A stretch of DNA of 26,680 bases from a virus. Lineage: Duplodnaviria > Caudoviricetes. The notes below the pieces were generated by a model. The model made no database searches. It was not told the DNA's origin and saw only the letters and a program-made list of their open reading frames with translations. Both the position numbers and the translations under genes were made by a program. Below, piece by piece: positions 1,550-26,680 of this stretch. Positions within the stretch are counted from its first letter, which is position 1. Every line of letters begins with the position of its first letter. The DNA is taken from IMG/VR virus record IMGVR_UViG_3300038318_000053, positions 1-26,680 of that record; one strand, written 5' to 3'.

Positions 1550-3293
1550 AACTAAAAAATATCAAATAAACAGAAAGGGGTTTACCCCATGAGCAAGAAA
1601 ATAACTAAAGAGCAAATAGAATATATTATTAACAATTATGGTAAACAAAATGAGAGAGATATGGCAGATACCTTAGATTTGACGTTAAGGCAAGTTAGGA
1701 GAACCATATATAATAATAATTTGAATAAAAACGAATATGGTATTATACAAAGGAGCGACTCGAAGCTAACGCCGCAAGAAAAATGTTTTGTATTGGAAAA
1801 TTATTCACATATGTCTACCATAGAAATATCTAAAATATTAAATGTTTCTAGAGATGATGTTGCAATATTTGCACAAAGACATAAGTTGAAAAAAGCATCT
1901 GATAAATATAAAGATAATGGCACGTTTACATTATCTGAAAAACAGTTTATCATTGATAACTATGCAGATATGACTACTAGAGAAATGGGAAGGTTGTTAA
2001 ATTCTTCGCTAAGTAAAATTTATTCATATGCTAGAACGCATAATTTAACTAAGAGTAAAAATTATATAGAATTTAGACAACGAGATGAAGGACTAACTTT
2101 AAAGCAAAAAGAGTTTATTTTAAGTAACTATTCTGATATGCAATCTAATAAAATTTGCAAAAAACTTAATATTACTTATGAGCAGTTAAGGTCTTTCGCA
2201 TCTAACCATAATCTAAGAAAATCAGTTCAAGGACATAATAATCCTCATCATTACTATGAGGAGCTTTTAAAAAAAAGAAAAGATAAAACAAACTATAATG
2301 TTTTTGATTTTATCAATAATTCCGAAGAAATTAAATTACCTTTGGATTTATTATATAAAAGTAAGTATGGTAAATATTGTGTGAATAGCAACTACTTCAA
2401 CAAAATAGACAATGAATTTAAAGCATATTGGCTAGGGTTTTTATATGCAGATGGATGTGTAACTATCAAGAAACCGAATGGCAAGAAGTCTTTTGTTTTG
2501 AGCTTGGCTCTTGCTATTAAAGATGAAGAGCATATAAAAAAATTTAGAAGTAGTATTCAGTCGGATGCTCCAATTAAGTCACGTAATATTAGAGATGATT
2601 TTTACAGTAGCTATATTAATATATGCAATAGAACGATAGTTGAGGATTTAAACAATCTCGGGTGTGTTCCATGCAAGTCACTCAAATTAAAGTTTCCTAC
2701 AAAAGATACAGTCCCTATAAAATATCTTAGAGATTTTATTAGGGGATATTTTGATGGTGACGGGTGTATACATATTAATACTCAAAAAAGAGAAGTAGGC
2801 ATTAGTTTTGTAGGAACATATGAATTTTTAAAAGATTTGCAAAACGTAATGTGTAATGAACTAGATATTTCTCATGTAAAGATTTATAAGAAAGAAAATC
2901 AACAAGCATATGCTTGTGGGTGGGGAAGTGTCAGGAGTTGTGAAAAAATTTATAAATATTTGTATAGAGATTGTAACATATGTTTAGATAGAAAATTAAA
3001 AAAATTTGATATTTTATATTGCTTGGATTAAACAAAATATGGATAGTTTAATCTGAAAGAGGGCAAAATCGGTGAAGTCCACCTTGAGAGGGATAATACC
3101 GAGGTAATTATAAATTTTAAAAAATTTATAACACCGTAACGAGTAGTGGTTGAACCTGCGTTTTGTAGAATATAATACCACCAAGAGTGTCCTCCGCACA
3201 CCATATTATATGTGCGAAAATGTACTCTGTTCTTATACGATAAGGTAAAAGTATAAGAATCATAGGATAAAGAGCCTATGAGATAACAAAAAG
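1550..3293 (+). mobile_element. Group I intron in terL (1744 nt) with homing endonuclease ORF in the P1 loop
   Basis: 5' exon ends TTAAGT and pairs with IGS GCTTGG (3021-3026, U-G wobble); P2 GATTAAAC/GTTTAATC; P4 ATCGGT/ACCGA; P7 AAC-GAGTA/TACTC-T; terminal G3293. Removal restores SRGLS|KSFIVSLYC in frame. Confidence 0.92.
1589..3031 (+). CDS. Intron-encoded two-motif LAGLIDADG homing endonuclease with four N-terminal HTH-like repeats
   Basis: Motifs AYWLGFLYADGCV and DFIRGYFDGDGCI; N-terminal ~55-aa repeats of the form T..EK.FI..NY..M...EI...LN.S......A..HNL.K. Confidence 0.9.
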   Translation: MSKKITKEQIEYIINNYGKQNERDMADTLDLTLRQVRRTIYNNNLNKNEYGIIQRSDSKLTPQEKCFVLENYSHMSTIEISKILNVSRDDVAIFAQRHKLKKASDKYKDNGTFTLSEKQFIIDNYADMTTREMGRLLNSSLSKIYSYARTHNLTKSKNYIEFRQRDEGLTLKQKEFILSNYSDMQSNKICKKLNITYEQLRSFASNHNLRKSVQGHNNPHHYYEELLKKRKDKTNYNVFDFINNSEEIKLPLDLLYKSKYGKYCVNSNYFNKIDNEFKAYWLGFLYADGCVTIKKPNGKKSFVLSLALAIKDEEHIKKFRSSIQSDAPIKSRNIRDDFYSSYINICNRTIVEDLNNLGCVPCKSLKLKFPTKDTVPIKYLRDFIRGYFDGDGCIHINTQKREVGISFVGTYEFLKDLQNVMCNELDISHVKIYKKENQQAYACGWGSVRSCEKIYKYLYRDCNICLDRKLKKFDILYCLD

Positions 3294-18402: not shown

Positions 18403-18813
18403 ATGGCAGGTAGTACATTTTCCGTACTGGTTGATGCTCACCTTAATACTGCAACTTTGAGAGCTGATTTAGAATCTATGAGCAAAACTGGAACTCTAAG
18501 TGTTGATATGACGCAAGCTCAAAAGGGCGTAAACACTATGAGTGAGTCTATAAGTGGTACTCAAAAAAAAGTAAAAGGTTTAAGTGGAGTATTAAAAGAT
18601 TTTGGTACAACCGTAGGGAAAGTATTTAAGTTTGCGGCGGCTACTGCGGCTATTGGTGCTGTTACGACCGCTGTATATAGTGCTGGTCAAGCAATAAAGG
18701 AATATGATGCGGCACTTATAGATTATCAGAAAGTTTCTGATTTGAGTGGTGAATCATTAAATAAGTATGCTAAACATTTGGGCGAATTGGGTTCAAGTGT
18801 GGCGAGGACTCGT
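18403..18813 (+). CDS. tmp: TMP exon 1 (411 nt)
   Basis: SD AAAGGAGG; ends ACT CGT; YDAALIDYQKVSD motif. Confidence 0.9.
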
Positions 18814-21800
18814 AAACCATGGTGCGAGAACGTATAGTAATATGCGTTAAGAATCTACCTAAAACTCATAACTCTTAAAGCCTTATAAACTACAGCACAA
18901 GGATGAAATATGCCTAAATGCGAATGTGGGAAACTGTTAAAAATTATAAGGATAATCTATGATTGAAAAATCTAAGGGTGGTAAAAATAGATGATGAGTA
19001 GCGAAGTTCCGAACAGGAATGTGTTGAACGACTACCACGATGCAATAATAAGGTATGTGATAATACACGAAGCATCATATGTGGGTACAACTCAAGCGAG
19101 TTGGAAACGGTAGACCCCTTATATTAGGGTGAAGAAATAGTCTGAACAATTTATGAAAGTAAATGGAGATGAACAATCTCATTAAGAAGTAGCGATTCTT
19201 AATAAACGAAAAATAGACCGAAATGATTTCAGCTTCAACAGAATTTAAGAAAAGTGGATATTCTGATAAAGATAGTGCAAAATTGGCGAAAGTTGCATCT
19301 TGATTATAAGGATGAGTGTGTGGTGACATACATTAAGAATAGGGTGAATTGCTGGAAAGCTAAACTTAATTGAGCAAGCCAATCAGCATCCAAGATTTTG
19401 TTGAAATACAAAATAAGGTTCACAGACTATCGAAAGCAATCAAGTAAAATAATACTTGACAAATGTAACTAATTATGATATAATTAGAATAAGTCCAATA
19501 ATGGAACGAAGCGAGTAGAGTACACTTTAAGTAAAGTGGAAGTGCCCTATATCTGTAGATTACAGATAAAGATATAGTCGAAACTCATGTGAAAATATGA
19601 GAGGTTGTTTAAGGAGAAATAATATGGCGTGGTATATACCGCAATCACAGATGAATAATAACCCACTAGATAGAAAAATTGTAATAGATAAAATTAGTCA
19701 ATATGGATATAAGCCTATAAATAAGAATTTTGTTTATATTAATCAAGAAACAAAAATACCATGTTATGATTGGGATGGTTATATAGTAAATGTAGCGTAT
19801 GCAAGATTAGGTAAAGTAAAAAATTTTTTAAGGTTTGATACAAAAAGTAACTTAGAAAATTTTGTATATAATGCTAATATACTAGGCTCTAAACTTAATA
19901 ACAAATCCAAAGTTGTTAATGTGTATAAAACTTCTAAGGATAAAATACGTAAAAATAGTAGGATAGTTGTTGGGTGTATTTGTGATTGTGGAGAATATTT
20001 TGAAACTGATTGGGCAGAGTGGAGAATGGGGCGTAAATCAGTATGTGAAGATTGCATTACAAAATATTCTAAGTTAGAAATGACAGTAAGAAAATTTTTA
20101 GACTGGAATCATATTGCTTCTATATACCAATATAAATTTGATGATTGCGTATTAAAAAAATGTTTACCGTTTGATTTCTTTTGTCCCATGGAGAATTTAT
20201 GTATTGAAGTAGATGGAGAACAGCATCGAAAACCAAGAGCTTTTAATGGTGGAGATAAGGCTTTTGAAAATATTCAATCACGTGATAATATAAAAACGCA
20301 ATATTGTAAAAATAAAAATATTGCATTATTAAGAATAACGAATAAAGAAATTATAAATGGGAAATATCGAGACAAAATTCTTAAAGCAACCAATCGAAAG
20401 TAACGATTTCGATTTAATATAATTGTTATATCAGAACATCGCCGATGAACAATTAAGTGCGTCAGATGCATCGAGTGTAATTATTTCGCAGATGAAAGCG
20501 TTCAATATTACTGCGGATAAATCAACACATATCATTGATAGTATCAACGCCGTAAGTAACAATTTTGCCGTATCTTCAGGAGATATAGGTAGAGGATTAA
20601 CGTCAGCAGGTGCGGCGTTAAGTACATATGGTAACTCGTTTGAACAGACGATTGGGTAAATAACTTGCTCAAGTAAAACGACTTTAATTGACGGGGAAAC
20701 CCTAAAGTTTTATACACCAACTTATAATGGAGACATATATAAGGGCAAACAGTAATGTGTTTGGTATGGTAAAAGATATAAAGATATATGGGCAATCCGC
20801 AACCAAGCATCTAAAGAGTATAGATGAAGGCTCAAAGATTATCGAAAGCAATAAATGTAACTAATTAATTTTAGAATAAGTGCTATTAAGCAACGAAGTG
20901 AGTAGAGTAAAACACGAGTGTGTTTGAAAAGGGTCGGTCTAATATAGACATGATATAATCTAATCTTATGTGAGAGCATAAGGCAATAATTTGCATAAAG
21001 GATTAACGAACCTTTATAAATATAAATGTAGTGACAGCGGGTACTGAGGTAATGCACGGTAAAGCCCAACAAGTTGCGAGAGGGAGAATTTAGCCCTAGT
21101 TGTATAGAAATATGCAATAGCAACAGAAATATAAATACAAATCTAAACCCAGTAAATCCTAAAGTTCTAATAACTACAACGTAATGATGAAATAAGCATA
21201 AGCGTGAATGTGCGAAAGTATTAAAAATATTAGAAATGGCTCATGGTTGAAAAACCTAAAAGTTAATACAATGGAGTTTTGGGTGCAAAGCCTCGAATAG
21301 AGGTGTGTCTAACGACTATCCCATAGGTGAACATATCACAATAGGAGTAAGGCTACTATGTCTAAGGTAGCGGGTGAAATTCCCTTAATTTGAAATGATT
21401 TGCTCTTAACAGGTAATGCTGAAGATGAAGAAATAGTCTACTCTCGTATGAAAGTGCGAGGAATTTAATGTTGATAATAGGAATATATTATCAACATTAG
21501 TTCATTAAAGTGTGACGAACTTTAATAAATATCAAGGCTAAATACAGTCGCAGGGCGTGTAGCTAAAAACAGCGATGCCCTAGCGAAATATGGAGTATCA
21601 GTAAAAGATTCAAATGGGAATTTACGTTCAACATACGACATCTTAAAAGATTTATCGCCGCAATGGAATAAGATGTCAAACAGCGAGAAAGTTTCATTAG
21701 GAAATACATTAGCAGGTTAAATGATTTTAGCCCGTATAGACTTAATTGACGGGGAAGAAAAGGGTCGTGCCTTTTATCTATACTAATAGTATGGATGCCT

Positions 21801-24800
21801 AAAGTTTTGCATACCAACCTAAAGTGGTAACATATTTGGGGGCTTAAAGTAACTAATTAAGATATGGTAAAAAATGTAAAAATATATGGTCAATCCGCAA
21901 CGAAGATTCCATTGGAATATGGAATAACGCTCAACGCATATCGAAAGCAATTAGTATAATACTAATAAATGTAACTTTATTATATAAAGAATAAGTGGGG
22001 AATCCCAACGAAGCGAGTAGAGTAGGTCATAATGCTAATGACCGAAAGAGTCTACACTTAGGAATAAGTGAAAATATATGCTGGTCAACATAGGAAAACT
22101 ATGTGAGTATTTTATTGATAAAAAGGAAAAAGATGAAGAGAAAATTTGTAGATTTAACAGGTCGAAAATTTGGATTATTAACACCACTATATCGTACACA
22201 TATTGGAGACAATGGTAAAAAATTAGAAAAGATTAGTTATTATTGCTCTTGTGAATGTGGTGGACATTGTTATGCCACGTATACACAATTAGTAAATGGA
22301 AATATTACGAGTTGTGGATGTAATAGAGGGCACGGTGGCAAAAAATATAAACTTAAATTTTTAGATGTTAAAAAAACATTTAATGATAGAGAACTTATTT
22401 TAGATGCTAATGAATACATTAATTCTAAAACCGCAATGAATTGCCATGATGCAGACGGATATAAATATAGTTTATCAAACGACTCAGTTTCAGATAAAAG
22501 GACAAAATCATTTGATAGATTTTGTAAGAAAAACAAGTTTGTATTATATAATATACAACATTGGATAGATTTACATGGAGTTCAAACTAAGTTGCTTAAT
22601 ACAGAATATCATGGCGAGAGAGATGTCTTAAACTTAGTTTGCGAATGTGGTAGACCCTTTCAAAGTACATGGAATCATTTGCAAGTATTAGATAAAACTA
22701 AATGTTATACATGTTGTAATGGGTCTCGATTAGAACAAGATATAGAAGATTATTTAATTGAAAATGATGTGAAGTATGTTAGAGAAAAAACCTTTAAAGG
22801 ATGTCGTGATAAAATAAGTTTACGATTTGATTTTTATTTGCCTGAATATAATCATGTGATTGAAGTAAATGGGGCACAACATTATATAGAGGTGGATATG
22901 TTTATTGATACTTTGGCTGAAAGACAAAGAAGAGATAAAATAAAATTAAACTATTGCTTGAATCACGATATAGGATATACCGCAATTCCTTATTGGGATA
23001 TAACTGGGCACAAAGCAAATAATAAATATAAAGAAACAATCAATAAAATACTGAAATAATTTAGCACATTATTTCAAACACAAACGGTAAATCAATATAA
23101 GGTAACACAAAATAAAATGCCTTTAACAAACTATATCGGTTAAAATCTAGAGATAGACAAGACCGAGCAAAGACTTGACAACTGTCAAGAATGTGTAACG
23201 ACTGCGATAGCCTTTATGGTAACATATAGGTTTAAGTTTGTTCTTGTTATAAACAAGTAATATACAGTCTGAACTCACACTATAATCTAAATATGAAATG
23301 TGAGAAATAGCTAGAAATAACTATTCGCCTTGTAGTGAGGTCAGTAACCAACAATTTGATGGTGAAAGTAACAGAGTGATTTGCGGCAGTAATGGGAAAT
23401 TTCAAAACTGCCATCAAAGCTAATGAAACTGCGTTAAATTCTTCGGGTTCAGCCGCCAAAGAGAACTCGAAGTATATGCAAAGTTTAAGTGCTTAAAATT
23501 CGGATTTAGGTACTATATTATAGCGATATAATATAAGCAACAGACTTAATTGCTGGAAACCCCTTAGAGATTCATAAACTACAACATAATTAGAAATAAT
23601 AAGTGTGAATGTTAAAAAATTATGAATATTGGGCAATCAGCAGAGAAGCCTCACTTGAAATAGTGGGGAACTTTCAACGACTATTAAAAGCAATTAGTGT
23701 AATACTAATAAATGTAACTTTGGAACACAAAGAATAAGCCATTATAATGGACGAAGCGAGTAAAGTACATGATAAATTCATGGAAAGAGTCTGCTCTATG
23801 ATAAATAGATGAAAATATAGTCTATCCTCATGTGAAAGCATGAGAGAAATATAATAAATAGGTGAAAATATGGATTATGAGGAAATAAAGAATAAAGTTG
23901 AACAATATGGCTATGTGCTATTAAGCGATTCTTATAAAAGCAATAATGATATTATATATATAGCATTACCATATTATATGTTTGAAACAGATGAATATAT
24001 TAAAATTTTAAATACCTATTTATAAAATATTTCAAATAAGAGAAAGTCGAAGGATTAAAAGCGGCATGGCAAGAATTAATATTAGGAAACGGTGGATTAG
24101 TACAAGGGGCTAAAGTTTTACTTGATGTAGCTACTGGTTTTCTCAAATTGGGTGACTCTATTGGAGGAATACCTATAGCATTAACTGCGGCGGCGGCGGG
24201 GTTCGTTAGCTTGTTAATACATTTATCTAAATTTTCAGATGCGGCAACTAAAGCGGCAGAGGCGAGTAAAGAACTTACCATTATTCAAAAGGCAAGTGCT
24301 GGATGGGATGTATTAACAGCGGCGATATCAAAATACGCCTTAAAAATAAAAGATACTGCTGTTGCACAAGCATTTTTAAACAGCCAAATGTCAGCGATGT
24401 TAGCGGTCGCCGCACCGTATATAGCAATAGTGGCTGGAATCGTTGCTGGTGCATACGCATTAGATAAAGCCAACAAAAAATGGGGCGGTAGTCTTTCTAA
24501 TGATGCGGCGTTCCAAAAGGCATCTAAAAATATTGATGCATACAGTAAGAAACTCAAGAGTATGGAAAAGGGTACGCAATCCGATTTGAGTTCTGCAAGT
24601 GGAGATGCTAATTATTATAGTGCTTTATACGACCAGCTTATGGATATAACCGATGCAAATGGTAAAGTTAAAAAAGGTGAAGAGGCAAGAGCACAGTTCA
24701 TAACTGGCACGTTAAATAGTGCATTGGGCACTAATATGCAACTTCAGAATGGTATCATAACTGGGTTAAATGGCGAAAAGGGTGCTGTTGAAAAATTAAT

Positions 24801-26680
24801 AAAAGCTAAACAAGCTGAAGCAATACTTGAAGCGTATAAAGATGATTATGTCCAAGCATTAAAAGATAGAGAAAAGGCTGAGAAAAACTATCAAACAGCA
24901 TACGAAAAAAATAAAAAAGCACAAGCTAAAGCGGCTAAAACTGGTTCAACGGCAGACGCAAAAGCGGCACAGCAATCTCAGAAAGCCTTAGATAAAGCTA
25001 CTGCTAATCTTCATAAAAATGCTAAAGCCCAAGAGAAATATACTAAGGCTATGAAGTTAGCGGCTGAGGGTAAAACTGATGAAATTATTAAATTAAGTAA
25101 TCAGGAAATAGATACCGCCGATGACGTTACAAGCAAGCATTATGCATCATCTAAGAAAAAAGTAAAAGCTATCAATAAAGAAATTGATGCTATTAATACT
25201 CAAATTGATGGGTATAAAAATTTACAAAAGGGTGTAAGCAAAAATAGTGATGAATACAAAGAGTACCAAAGTCAAATTGATAAATTAAAGACAAAAAAGG
25301 GAGAACTAACGACAGCTCTTAATACCGAAAAGGCGGCGATGAAGTCTAATGGAGATGCCACTAAAAAAGCTGGAGATAAAATGTCGTTAGCTCGTGTGCG
25401 AGCTGTAAATTTAAAGAACACACTACGTAGCGGATGGTCAATTAATCTTTCGGGCGTATTTTCATCTCTTAATAGTCTTATAACCAAAGCTGGTCAAGCA
25501 AGAGAGGCTATTAGGAAAGCAAACGGCGGTGGTACTAGGGGCGTTAACGCCACATCAACTAAAGCCGCAGGCGGTGAGTCTCAGGGTGGAGATACGCTCG
25601 TAGGTGAAAAGGGGCGAGAACTTGTTCAGAGTGGCGATATTGCATATATGGTCGGCGAGTATGGTGCAGAAATTGTCAAATTAAAAAAAGGCGATTTTGT
25701 ATATACTAATGCTCAGACTGAGCGTATGCTCAAAGGTCAAAAGTCATCACCTAGACTTAAAGCTCGTTCAAAAGGTACAAAAGATACTTTAGATAGTTAT
25801 TTTGATACTTACGAGGAATGGTTATCTAAAGGCAGTAAAAGTGTATCACAATATTATAATGCGACTGTAGGAAATGCAACAACATATAAAAAGCGTAAAT
25901 GGATAAGTGCATCTGATTACATGGATGCTTTAGAGAGTAGTGCTAGTACATTATTTTCAACGATGGACGATTTATATGATGCTGGAGCAATTTCTACAAA
26001 AAATTATTATAATAATCTGCTTAAATATGCAAATGCATATAAATCAAAAGGTGCTTTAACTGTTAAAGAGTATTTTGATTATATAACTAAAGCAAAAGAT
26101 ACACTTGTTGATTCTGTCAAGAACGATTTGGAAAAATTAGAAGATAAAACGAGTGGAACTGTAGATTCTTTAGAGTCTAAGTTTGGTGCGTTTACAACTT
26201 ATGCCGATGAGCAAAAGACAATATTGCAAGGGCAATTAGATGCTCTCGATGCTAAAGAATCGGCTTTAAATGGGACTGATTTAGCTGGGCTTCAGAAAAA
26301 CTTGGAAACGGCTCAAAATAGCAAAAATGTTCGAGTGTATAGCGCGGCGAAAGGCTGGCAGTATGAAGCCGACCAAAGTGCTGTCGATGAAGCTCAAAAG
26401 GCTATTGATGAGTATAACCTTAATCAAGAAAAGCAAGCAATACAAGACCAAATGGATGCGTATGATAATTTCTTGAGTGAGCAAGAAACGTATTTGAATA
26501 AATATATTCAAGAACTTGAATTAGGTAAAACTATTGAAGAAGTTGTATTTAAAGATAGAGAACAAAACTTTGATAATTTCAAAGAATCGTATCTCGAATA
26601 TATGAAAGACATGTTGAAGGCTCAGGATGAGTATGTAGCGGCTCAGAAAGAAAACTCATTAGTTTCTAATGCTGATAATT
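18403..26680 (+). CDS. tmp: Tail tape measure protein gene split by 7 group I introns: join(18403..18813,19217..19300,20426..20657,21029..21084,21538..21717,23087..23103,23379..23493,24043..>26680), more than 1244 aa
   Basis: Joined exons read in one frame: SSVARTR|TEMISASTEFKKSG..KVAS|LYQNIAD..EQTIGL|VTAGTE..QVARG|LNTV..LRSTYDILKDL..TLAG|VNQYKV|FAAVMGNF..SGSAAKENSKYMQSLSA|KVEGLKAAWQEL, which is a TP901-type TMP core. Downstream KAAGG..LVGEKGRELV motif. 3' end is outside the window. Confidence 0.93.
18814..19216 (+). ncRNA. TMP group I intron 1 (403 nt, no ORF)
   Basis: P1 CTCGT/GCGAG (U-G); P10 GGT/ACC; P7 AAC-GACTA/TAGTC-T; terminal G19216. Confidence 0.9.
19217..19300 (+). CDS. tmp: TMP exon 2 (84 nt)
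   Basis: TEMISASTEFKKSGYSDKDSAKLAKVAS. Confidence 0.88.
19456..19484 (+). promoter_or_regulatory. Consensus sigmaA/sigma70 promoter inside intron 2
   Basis: TTGACA(19456-19461), 17-nt spacer, TATAAT(19479-19484), with extended -10 TG at 19476-19477; 140 nt upstream of the endonuclease ATG. Confidence 0.75.
19624..20403 (+). CDS. Intron-encoded EDxHD/Vsr-like (PD-(D/E)xK fold) homing endonuclease
   Basis: SD AAGGAG before ATG 19624; CDCG..CEDC zinc motif, SKLE, LPFDFF..LCIEVDGEQH..RDNIK..YC..NI.LLRI. Confidence 0.85.
   Translation: MAWYIPQSQMNNNPLDRKIVIDKISQYGYKPINKNFVYINQETKIPCYDWDGYIVNVAYARLGKVKNFLRFDTKSNLENFVYNANILGSKLNNKSKVVNVYKTSKDKIRKNSRIVVGCICDCGEYFETDWAEWRMGRKSVCEDCITKYSKLEMTVRKFLDWNHIASIYQYKFDDCVLKKCLPFDFFCPMENLCIEVDGEQHRKPRAFNGGDKAFENIQSRDNIKTQYCKNKNIALLRITNKEIINGKYRDKILKATNRK
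20426..20657 (+). CDS. tmp: TMP exon 3 (232 nt)
   Basis: LYQNIADE...IIDSINAVSNNFAVSSGDIG...GNSFEQTIG plus 1 nt. Confidence 0.9.
20658..21028 (+). ncRNA. TMP group I intron 3 (371 nt, no ORF)
   Basis: P1 TTGGGT/GCTCAA; P4 AATTGACGGG/AATCCGCAA; P7 AA-GATTA/TAATC-T; terminal G21028. Confidence 0.9.
21029..21084 (+). CDS. tmp: TMP exon 4 (55-56 nt)
   Basis: (L)VTAGTEVMHGKAQQVARG; 3' boundary ambiguous by 1 nt within a G run. Confidence 0.85.
21085..21537 (+). ncRNA. TMP group I intron 4 (453 nt, no ORF, non-canonical 5' splice site)
   Basis: IGS ATTTAGCCCT is fully complementary to the ligated junction AGGG|CTAAAT; P7 AAC-GACTA/TAGTC-T; similar to intron 1; terminal G21537 (or 21536). Confidence 0.85.
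21538..21717 (+). CDS. tmp: TMP exon 5 (180 nt)
   Basis: LNTVAGRV...YGVSVKDSNGNLRSTYDILKDLSPQWNKMS..TLAG. Confidence 0.9.
21718..23086 (+). mobile_element. TMP group I intron 5 (1369 nt) with endonuclease ORF in the P9 region
   Basis: P1 GGT/GCC; P10 TGATTT/AAATCA; P4 AATTGACGGG/AATCCGCAA; P7 AAC-GCATA/TATGC-T; terminal G23086. Confidence 0.9.
22133..23059 (+). CDS. Intron-encoded EDxHD/Vsr-like homing endonuclease with N-terminal Cys-rich domain
   Basis: SD AAAGGA before ATG 22133; DLTGRKFGLLT..YCSCECG..TSCGC, CECG..CYTC, SRLE, LRFDFYLP..VIEVNGAQH..RDKIK. Confidence 0.85.
   Translation: MKRKFVDLTGRKFGLLTPLYRTHIGDNGKKLEKISYYCSCECGGHCYATYTQLVNGNITSCGCNRGHGGKKYKLKFLDVKKTFNDRELILDANEYINSKTAMNCHDADGYKYSLSNDSVSDKRTKSFDRFCKKNKFVLYNIQHWIDLHGVQTKLLNTEYHGERDVLNLVCECGRPFQSTWNHLQVLDKTKCYTCCNGSRLEQDIEDYLIENDVKYVREKTFKGCRDKISLRFDFYLPEYNHVIEVNGAQHYIEVDMFIDTLAERQRRDKIKLNYCLNHDIGYTAIPYWDITGHKANNKYKETINKILK
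23087..23103 (+). CDS. tmp: TMP exon 6 (17-nt micro-exon)
   Basis: GTAAATCAATATAAGGT encodes VNQYK(V); needed to keep the frame between exons 5 and 7. Confidence 0.82.
23104..23378 (+). ncRNA. TMP group I intron 6 (275 nt, compact, no ORF)
   Basis: P1 AAGGT/GCCTT; P10 AAAT/ATTT; P4 ATCGGT/ACCGA; P7 AAC-GACTG/CAGTC-T; terminal G23378. Confidence 0.88.
23379..23493 (+). CDS. tmp: TMP exon 7 (115 nt)
   Basis: FAAVMGNFKTAIKANETALNSSGSAAKENSKYMQSLSA. Confidence 0.9.
23494..24042 (+). ncRNA. TMP group I intron 7 (549 nt) with endonuclease remnant
   Basis: P1 AGTGCT/GGTACT; P10 TTCGGATTT/AAAGTCGAA; P4 AATTGCTGGAA/AATCAGCAG; P7 AAC-GACTA/TAGTC-T; terminal G24042. Confidence 0.9.
23870..24025 (+). 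pseudogene. Internally deleted homing endonuclease remnant (51-aa ORF)
   Basis: SD AGGTGA; MDYEEIKNKVEQYGYVLLSDSYKS resembles N-terminal parts of the other two TMP endonucleases, and NNDIIYIALPYY..EYIKILN resembles their C-termini (NHDIGYTAIPYW..KYKETIN); catalytic core absent. Confidence 0.75.
24043..26680 (+). CDS. tmp: TMP exon 8 (partial, runs off the window; absent from the ORF track)
   Basis: Frame reads KVEGLKAAWQELILGNGGL..., Ala/Lys-rich coiled coil with hydrophobic segments and the AGG..LVGEKGRELV motif, still open at 26680. Confidence 0.92.

Follow-up and report, generated by a model that had tools for sequence, protein, structure and literature searches.

A phage tape-measure group I intron predicted to splice after a G-C pair instead of the U·G wobble

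According to the accessible text of PMC2504315, a U held in a U-G pair precedes virtually every group I intron, and an initial annotation of the DNA studied here described an intron in a phage tail gene, intron 4, whose 5' splice site appeared to break this rule. Could such an intron be a working ribozyme and, if so, what would place its cut? The window analysed was the whole 26,680-base virus record, a tailed-phage head-and-tail gene block whose terminase-like protein is 44-57% identical to its counterpart in Enterocloster phage CB457P2, which suggests that the window phage may have a Firmicutes host. The host gene of intron 4 and the intron that serves as its internal comparator are:

18403..26680, + strand: tail tape-measure protein (TMP) gene, classed in PHROG as tail length tape measure protein; seven group I-type introns divide it into eight exons, and it is open at the window end.
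18814..19216, + strand: intron 1, a member of intron 4's clade without the J5/4 adenosine, with U·G at the 13-nt position.

When joined, the TMP exons gave 1244 codons with zero stops, and an eighth intron (1550-3293) interrupts the gene read as terminase. The annotation had held that the seven introns other than intron 4 all follow an exon U paired to a guide G, and this was borne out: each is preceded by U and ends in G, the U·G partner being assigned by script for the six other TMP introns and by eye, as G3021, for the terminase intron, in which the script's top match was another site within the nuclease ORF. The 5' site of intron 1 at 18813 (U·G) is backed by intron-less alleles in contigs. 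Just three of the eight window introns (2, 3, and 4) were matched by Rfam RF00028 at E <= 1, and the match to intron 4 (21255-21460; 32.4 bits, E 7.8e-5) fell under the gathering score of 50. Among the other introns, the nuclease ORF of the terminase intron sits within P1; this intron and intron 6 (23104-23378) are of a different structural type; exon 6, flanked by introns 5 and 6, is 17 nt long (23087-23103); and intron 7 (23870-24040) holds an apparent decayed nuclease ORF remnant, at which the contig of run X2 has a 4-base insertion. Alleles without intron 1, without intron 7, or without intron 2's nuclease ORF were also present in contigs, and the tape-measure gene of L119 carries a tandem pair of introns with a short exon between them (2300-2400).

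The elements that define the splice junction of intron 4 are:

21029..21084, + strand: exon 4, 56 nt, ending at Gly261 codon GGG; G21084 is the predicted -1 nucleotide.
21085..21537, + strand: intron 4, 453 nt, group I, with an IA-like layout and extra helices between P7 and P3.
21088..21097, + strand: internal guide, made up of the P1 segment 21094-21097, which base-pairs with the end of the exon, and the P10 segment 21088-21093, which base-pairs with the opening 6 nt of exon 5.
21537, + strand: terminal G of intron 4; with a one-base slide of the cut, 21536 would take its place.
21538..21717, + strand: exon 5, starting with the Leu262 codon.

The junction A-R-G/L-N-T was set by intron-less homologues, and sister-allele contigs with loose ends from runs X3 and X9, which belong to the same phage group, enter exon 5 reading A-R-G-L-N-T. 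At this junction (VARG/LNTV in the annotation) the exon ends in AGAGGG, at 21084, and G21084 faces guide C21094; the claim that intron 4 lacks the wobble at its 5' splice site was therefore upheld, the pair being G-C. Also confirmed was the claim that the guide is a perfect 10-nt complement of the ligated exons. It comprises four Watson-Crick pairs in P1 and six in P10, occurs once in the window, and would be matched by chance with a probability of ~1.3e-5 (first 31 positions, intron composition). The cut can be slid one base to the left (after 21083, with G21536 terminal), where the pair is also G-C. If left unspliced, the RNA meets an in-frame stop at 21091-21093. Intron 4 does not qualify as a homing-endonuclease intron, with no ORF of >=80 aa on the + strand of 21085-21537, and six of its homologues, at 1.4-1.6 kb, are long enough for a nuclease ORF.

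Immediately downstream of the guide lie two further elements:

21099..21118, + strand: P2 hairpin, 8 bp, with a GAAA (GNRA) loop at 21107-21110 that starts 13 nt after C21094.
21120..21124, + strand: part of a 12-nt insert found in the window copy only, predicted to pair with exon positions 21073-21077 and form a P1/P2 three-way junction.

Local folding placed P1 (21081-21084 with 21094-21097) stacked beside the 8-bp P2 (z -3.4). A U·G pair at the same 13 nt from the P2 loop was found in the canonical-type introns of L065, L082, and the window and in intron 1, and by eye also in L121 and L513; the exception was L033's first intron, with U·G at 14 nt. On the basis of established group I folds, we presume that the P2 GNRA loop of intron 4 contacts P8.

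The catalytic core was assigned as follows:

21138..21143, + strand: P3 5' strand, pairing with 21397-21402, with both-side changes in 5/6 pairs.
21147..21159, + strand: P4 5' strand, J4/5, and P5 5' strand; J4/5 is 21153-21156, with both adenosines kept.
21273..21284, + strand: P5 3' strand, J5/4, and P4 3' strand; J5/4 is 21276-21278 and reads GUU rather than AAU.
21314..21318, + strand: 5' strand of P7, which carries the guanosine-site G and pairs with 21434-21438; the G-C is invariant in 12/12.
21404..21425, + strand: P8 base (21404-21407 with 21422-21425), presumed P2-loop receptor region.

Over 12 homologues, 98.1% of the 468 cells in core helices were paired and 21 of the 39 pairs had changed on both sides, whereas none of 500 shuffles scored as high and slid controls reached 30-44%, the structure having been drawn from the window copy, which favours it over the slid controls. 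Compensatory changes were also found in P1, P10, and P7 among the introns at intron 4's site. Whole-intron minimum-energy folding missed the pseudoknotted core and was left out of the structure model. Intron 4 thus has the hallmarks of a group I intron, namely a P3-P7/P4-P6 core, the guanosine-site G-C, a terminal G, and a P1/P10 guide. Extra sequence is present between P7 and P3. Intron 4 lacks the canonical splice-site features, i.e., the U·G wobble and an A-rich J4/5-J5/4 receptor (mapped by position).

Introns at the same TMP site were gathered from other phages by protein and motif searches, with L064 (identical to L063) counted once. The annotation had proposed that a conserved G-C would be informative, and conserved it was: at least 11 other distinct introns occupy the site, of which 10 have G-C, one (L252) has a compensatory C-G, and none has U·G, although the rows here and in the wider clade are related, some being near-duplicates, and the counts are of non-independent events. 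In L252 the site codon is Ala, and the C-G pair involves the guide base located 13 nt ahead of the P2 loop. Four of the 12 site introns (L252, L363, L378, and L473) were retrieved with a pattern in which two exon Gs were fixed; the eight found without exon constraint (the window's, L063, L065, L068, L082, L120, L128, and L129) are all G-C. This site-targeted pattern returned mostly noise (at least 316 loci among the matches listed, from 10/64 metagenome and 23/64 genome parts), and contributed L252 and three phylogenetically new G-C introns at the TMP site (L363, L378, and L473). Insertion follows a whole codon in four of the 12 and a codon's second base in eight, which argues that what is kept is the RNA pairing rather than the codon phase. 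All 11 distinct empty Gly-Leu contexts have Leu, with Gly encoded by GGT in 7, GGA in 2, GGC in 2, and GGG in 0 (four Gly-Met contexts were excluded as likely misaligned). A U at the third codon position was on offer in 7/11 empty alleles, yet the four introns inserted after a whole Gly codon all follow GGG, the window's rarest Gly codon (30/270, 11%).

Introns insert at no fewer than five neighbouring points in the tape-measure stretch around this site, which is thus an insertion hot spot. Introns in L008 and L009 (2540-2930), considered as same-site candidates, were rejected, being inserted 2 nt downstream with a canonical U·G. A guide-plus-P2 pattern run on viral contigs gave two matches, both by chance and with no intron. 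No phage or plasmid record was found by blastn with intron 4 at 80% coverage. Searches with three clade members returned partial matches, and of six regions examined (L193, L194, L195, L513, L514, and L515), L193, L194, L513, and L514 are of canonical types and L515 is a candidate metagenomic clade member; neither these searches nor the blastn search with intron 4 returned a cultured phage with its design.

How the wobble is normally read is described in the accessible portions of PMC1891724 and PMC13692252, in which the amine of G22 in the Tetrahymena ribozyme contacts A207 in J5/4; the former names A207 in Tetrahymena, A87 in Azoarcus, and A83 in Twort as the readers. Intron 4's clade, gathered by a shared motif that excluded the J5/4 strand, had support of 100/99 in a tree of 42 cores from which five near-duplicates were excluded. 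We take the middle base of J5/4 to be the A207 equivalent, an assignment made by position, and in part by residue numbering, rather than by a structural match. Of 40 clade rows, 35 have G at this base, two have U, one has C, and two have A. J5/4 was AAU in all seven canonical-type introns detected, and also in window introns 2, 3, 5, and 7. Guide position 13 in the same 40 rows was C in 28 and G in 12, the G standing opposite exon C in 10 and U in 2. At other sites, inspection of both ends by eye found C-G with a terminal G in L074, L078, L087, L094, and L130, and G-C with a terminal G in tail-tube or similar host genes (L098, L116/L260, L313, L134, and L240); many of these by-eye assignments permit a one-base slide. 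The link between receptor and pair is loose, since the adenosine is missing from intron 1 and L121, both of which have U·G, and L018 has AAU with an apparent G-C.

These results establish intron 4 as a real, conserved variant of a group I intron, for which splicing is predicted. The suggestion that it is a natural ribozyme variant is thus supported by the 11 other site introns, the compensatory C-G, the covarying core, and an independent contig, splicing itself being a prediction. Judging from the sequence, splicing at the G-C pair in vivo is highly probable. Free guanosine would attack after 21084 and the freed exon 3'-OH would then attack after G21537, two ordinary transesterifications that would restore A-R-G-L-N-T. 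We infer that splice-site recognition is altered in intron 4. P1 would stack on P2 and the P2 GNRA loop would dock on P8, such that distance, and not reading of the wobble, would place the cut. We propose that U·G is no longer selected because the wobble-receptor adenosine was lost; G-C, C-G, and U·G would then all be tolerated, and G-C-rich P1 pairing, aided in the window copy perhaps by the extra exon-insert helix, would replace the lost docking contact. On balance we favour this account, in which a ruler is combined with a lost receptor, and intron 4 is probably a G21084-C21094 group I intron that is likely self-splicing, with a P1 predicted to be set by distance. For the broader proposition, that a whole phage clade has dispensed with the wobble-receptor system, losing the J5/4 adenosine, using a P2-P8 ruler, and self-splicing accurately after G, C, and U, we put the chances at about even.

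The G-C junction could be right and the ribozyme nevertheless weak or non-autonomous, P1 being held by a protein or other helper and the receptor change being drift. Loss of a G22-A207-type contact is costly in model ribozymes, according to the portions seen of PMC1891724 and PMC13692252. The latter reports that C(-1)·G cuts docking ~100-fold in an engineered canonical Tetrahymena ribozyme, and the available part of PMC12355055 reports that swapping U·G for G·U abolished circularisation by the Anabaena intron. Since engineered canonical ribozymes tolerate a changed splice pair poorly, these reports count against a working G-C intron 4. Moreover, its P1 has just four pairs, and clade members with U·G are likewise without the adenosine. 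However, no maturase-like factor is evident and the window copy has no ORF, the core and peripheral helices covary like those of self-splicing introns, and the design recurs across many phages, in tape-measure as well as tail-tube genes. We therefore consider dependence on a helper unlikely.

Both cuts could instead fall one base later, which would place A21085 opposite G21093, end the intron at C21538, and give an mRNA reading A-R-G-I-N-T. This reading retains a guide G at the splice pair, and in 3/9 relatives it would create a U·G and in 4/9 an A-U, with an identical mRNA. Strict reliance on the terminal G would also be misplaced here, as L018 and L513 apparently end in A, one base past, or without, the G. 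L018 is an intron of the clade in a TMP gene (520-910); its 6-pair P10, taken with the open frame, points to a terminal A and a G-C 5' pair, and its J5/4 strand is AAU. In L513, the terminase intron of the cultured Enterocloster phage CB457P2 (1740-1790 and 3005-3025), U·G lies at 13 nt beside a perfect 6-pair P10, and the pairing implies a terminal A one base past G with the D-L-R motif kept. Among the nine site introns with both ends, however, a cut at 13 nt always leaves an intron ending in G, an open frame, and Leu as the next residue, whereas with the later cut a terminal G is seen in 0/9 despite the invariant guanosine site. The later cut would also replace Leu with Ile, Ile, or Phe in three of the four whole-codon introns, as against Leu in 11/11 empty alleles. 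In 9/9, the base that opens the 3' exon is paired to guide position 14, and the C-G pair of L252 sets its guide G at 13 and not 14. Finally, the later cut would require two exceptions of the window copy rather than one and would still provide no U·G. Cuts displaced in this way are accordingly improbable, and the junction after G21084 is retained.

The annotation had also raised a sequence error or a dead allele, under which nothing would be spliced and the tail gene would be broken. Part of the region is contained in 20 of 24 runs among the matches listed, from 13 studies, and contigs of seven runs were compared. The contig of run X2, from an independent study of 2025, covers 21028-21441 with 0 differences from the window; it alone, at depth 6, covers the 5' site, which none of the contigs from X3, X8, X9, X10, and X11 does. 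The 3' site is spanned by contigs of X2, X5, and X11, again with 0 differences, so that contigs agree with the window at both splice sites. A sequence error was thus rejected, the same 5' site having been recovered independently 11 years later. In favour of a dead allele, the contigs hold no spliced RNA, the source contig is from an uncultured phage, and the Rfam score is under the gathering threshold. Among the joints listed from the contigs examined, none was the 21084-21538 joint of spliced intron 4, although spliced forms that are rare would escape contigs, and the contig of X11 (recorded as RNA, though it may be DNA) crosses the 3' site unspliced. Against this stand the design shared by 11 other introns, with their compensatory C-G, the compensatory changes in P1, P10, and P7, the covarying core, and a gene that is open for 1244 codons when joined and stopped at 21091-21093 when not; a dead or misassembled allele is very unlikely. 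An X11 joint that skips intron 1 was considered as splicing and rejected, since X2 and X3 share its substitutions, which identifies an intron-less DNA allele. The sister alleles of X3 and X9 have no intron 4 and apparently carry a different intron ~10 nt upstream (window 21070-21075), within a Val codon. Use of another U-ending 5' site nearby is scarcely credible: the in-frame option after U21074 (net -3 residues) adjoins the site of that different intron, but all four in-frame U options found need G21099, the first base of P2, have a 3-pair P1 at 8-nt spacing, and yield a protein of changed length, and none of them would explain the 10-nt guide match.

The U·G pair is regarded as wholly invariant. 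In the literature covered, chiefly the main text of recent open-access papers, we came across neither a natural exon-G/guide-C splice pair nor a loss of the J5/4 receptor. The accessible text of PMC11878797, PMC13521648, PMC5192423, PMC8565351, PMC7877785, PMC10254303, and PMC6274277 contained nothing on exon-G cases. A 2025 database requires the U and, in the part available, rejected 16,427 candidates for not following one (PMC11835236); if our reading is true, the clade would be invisible to databases of this kind. Similarly, the accessible part of a 2026 preprint names the U(-1) requirement as a key limit for trans-splicing ribozymes (PMC13692252), and the clade, if the reading holds, would serve trans-splicing and RNA circularisation as a natural scaffold free of it. 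What selects a 5' splice site without the wobble can be tested directly in the ORF-less, 453-nt intron 4, since tailed phages need the gene, no U·G option lies near the cut, and the gene also holds intron 1, a sister with U·G, and four canonical introns.

The closest known counterparts are the IA1/IA2 group I introns TMP-IVS1 to IVS3 in tape-measure genes of B. cereus-group prophages, as described in the accessible text of PMC2504315. By that description, intron 4 resembles them in the type of host gene, the presence of several introns per gene, an optional nuclease, and site-adapted P1 and P10, whereas its G-C pair departs from their U-G rule. With canonical phage introns (window introns 2, 3, 5, and 7; L513; RF00028) it shares the P3-P9 core, the guanosine site, a GNRA-capped P2, the 13-nt spacing, and P10. 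However, those introns have U·G and AAU in J5/4, while in intron 4's clade P4 differs and the J5/4 adenosines are mostly missing. Chemistry and core fold are expected to be like those of the Tetrahymena, Azoarcus, and Twort ribozymes; unlike them, intron 4 has by position no receptor adenosine, and their docking contact could not form as such. Hur and Waring reportedly described, in 1995, two fungal mitochondrial introns with C·G at the 5' splice site, which would share with intron 4 a natural Watson-Crick pair instead of the wobble. In the fungal introns the exon base is C and the guide G is kept, whereas in intron 4 the exon has G and the guide C, both bases having changed; a C-G pair of the fungal type is also present in 10 of the 40 rows of intron 4's clade.
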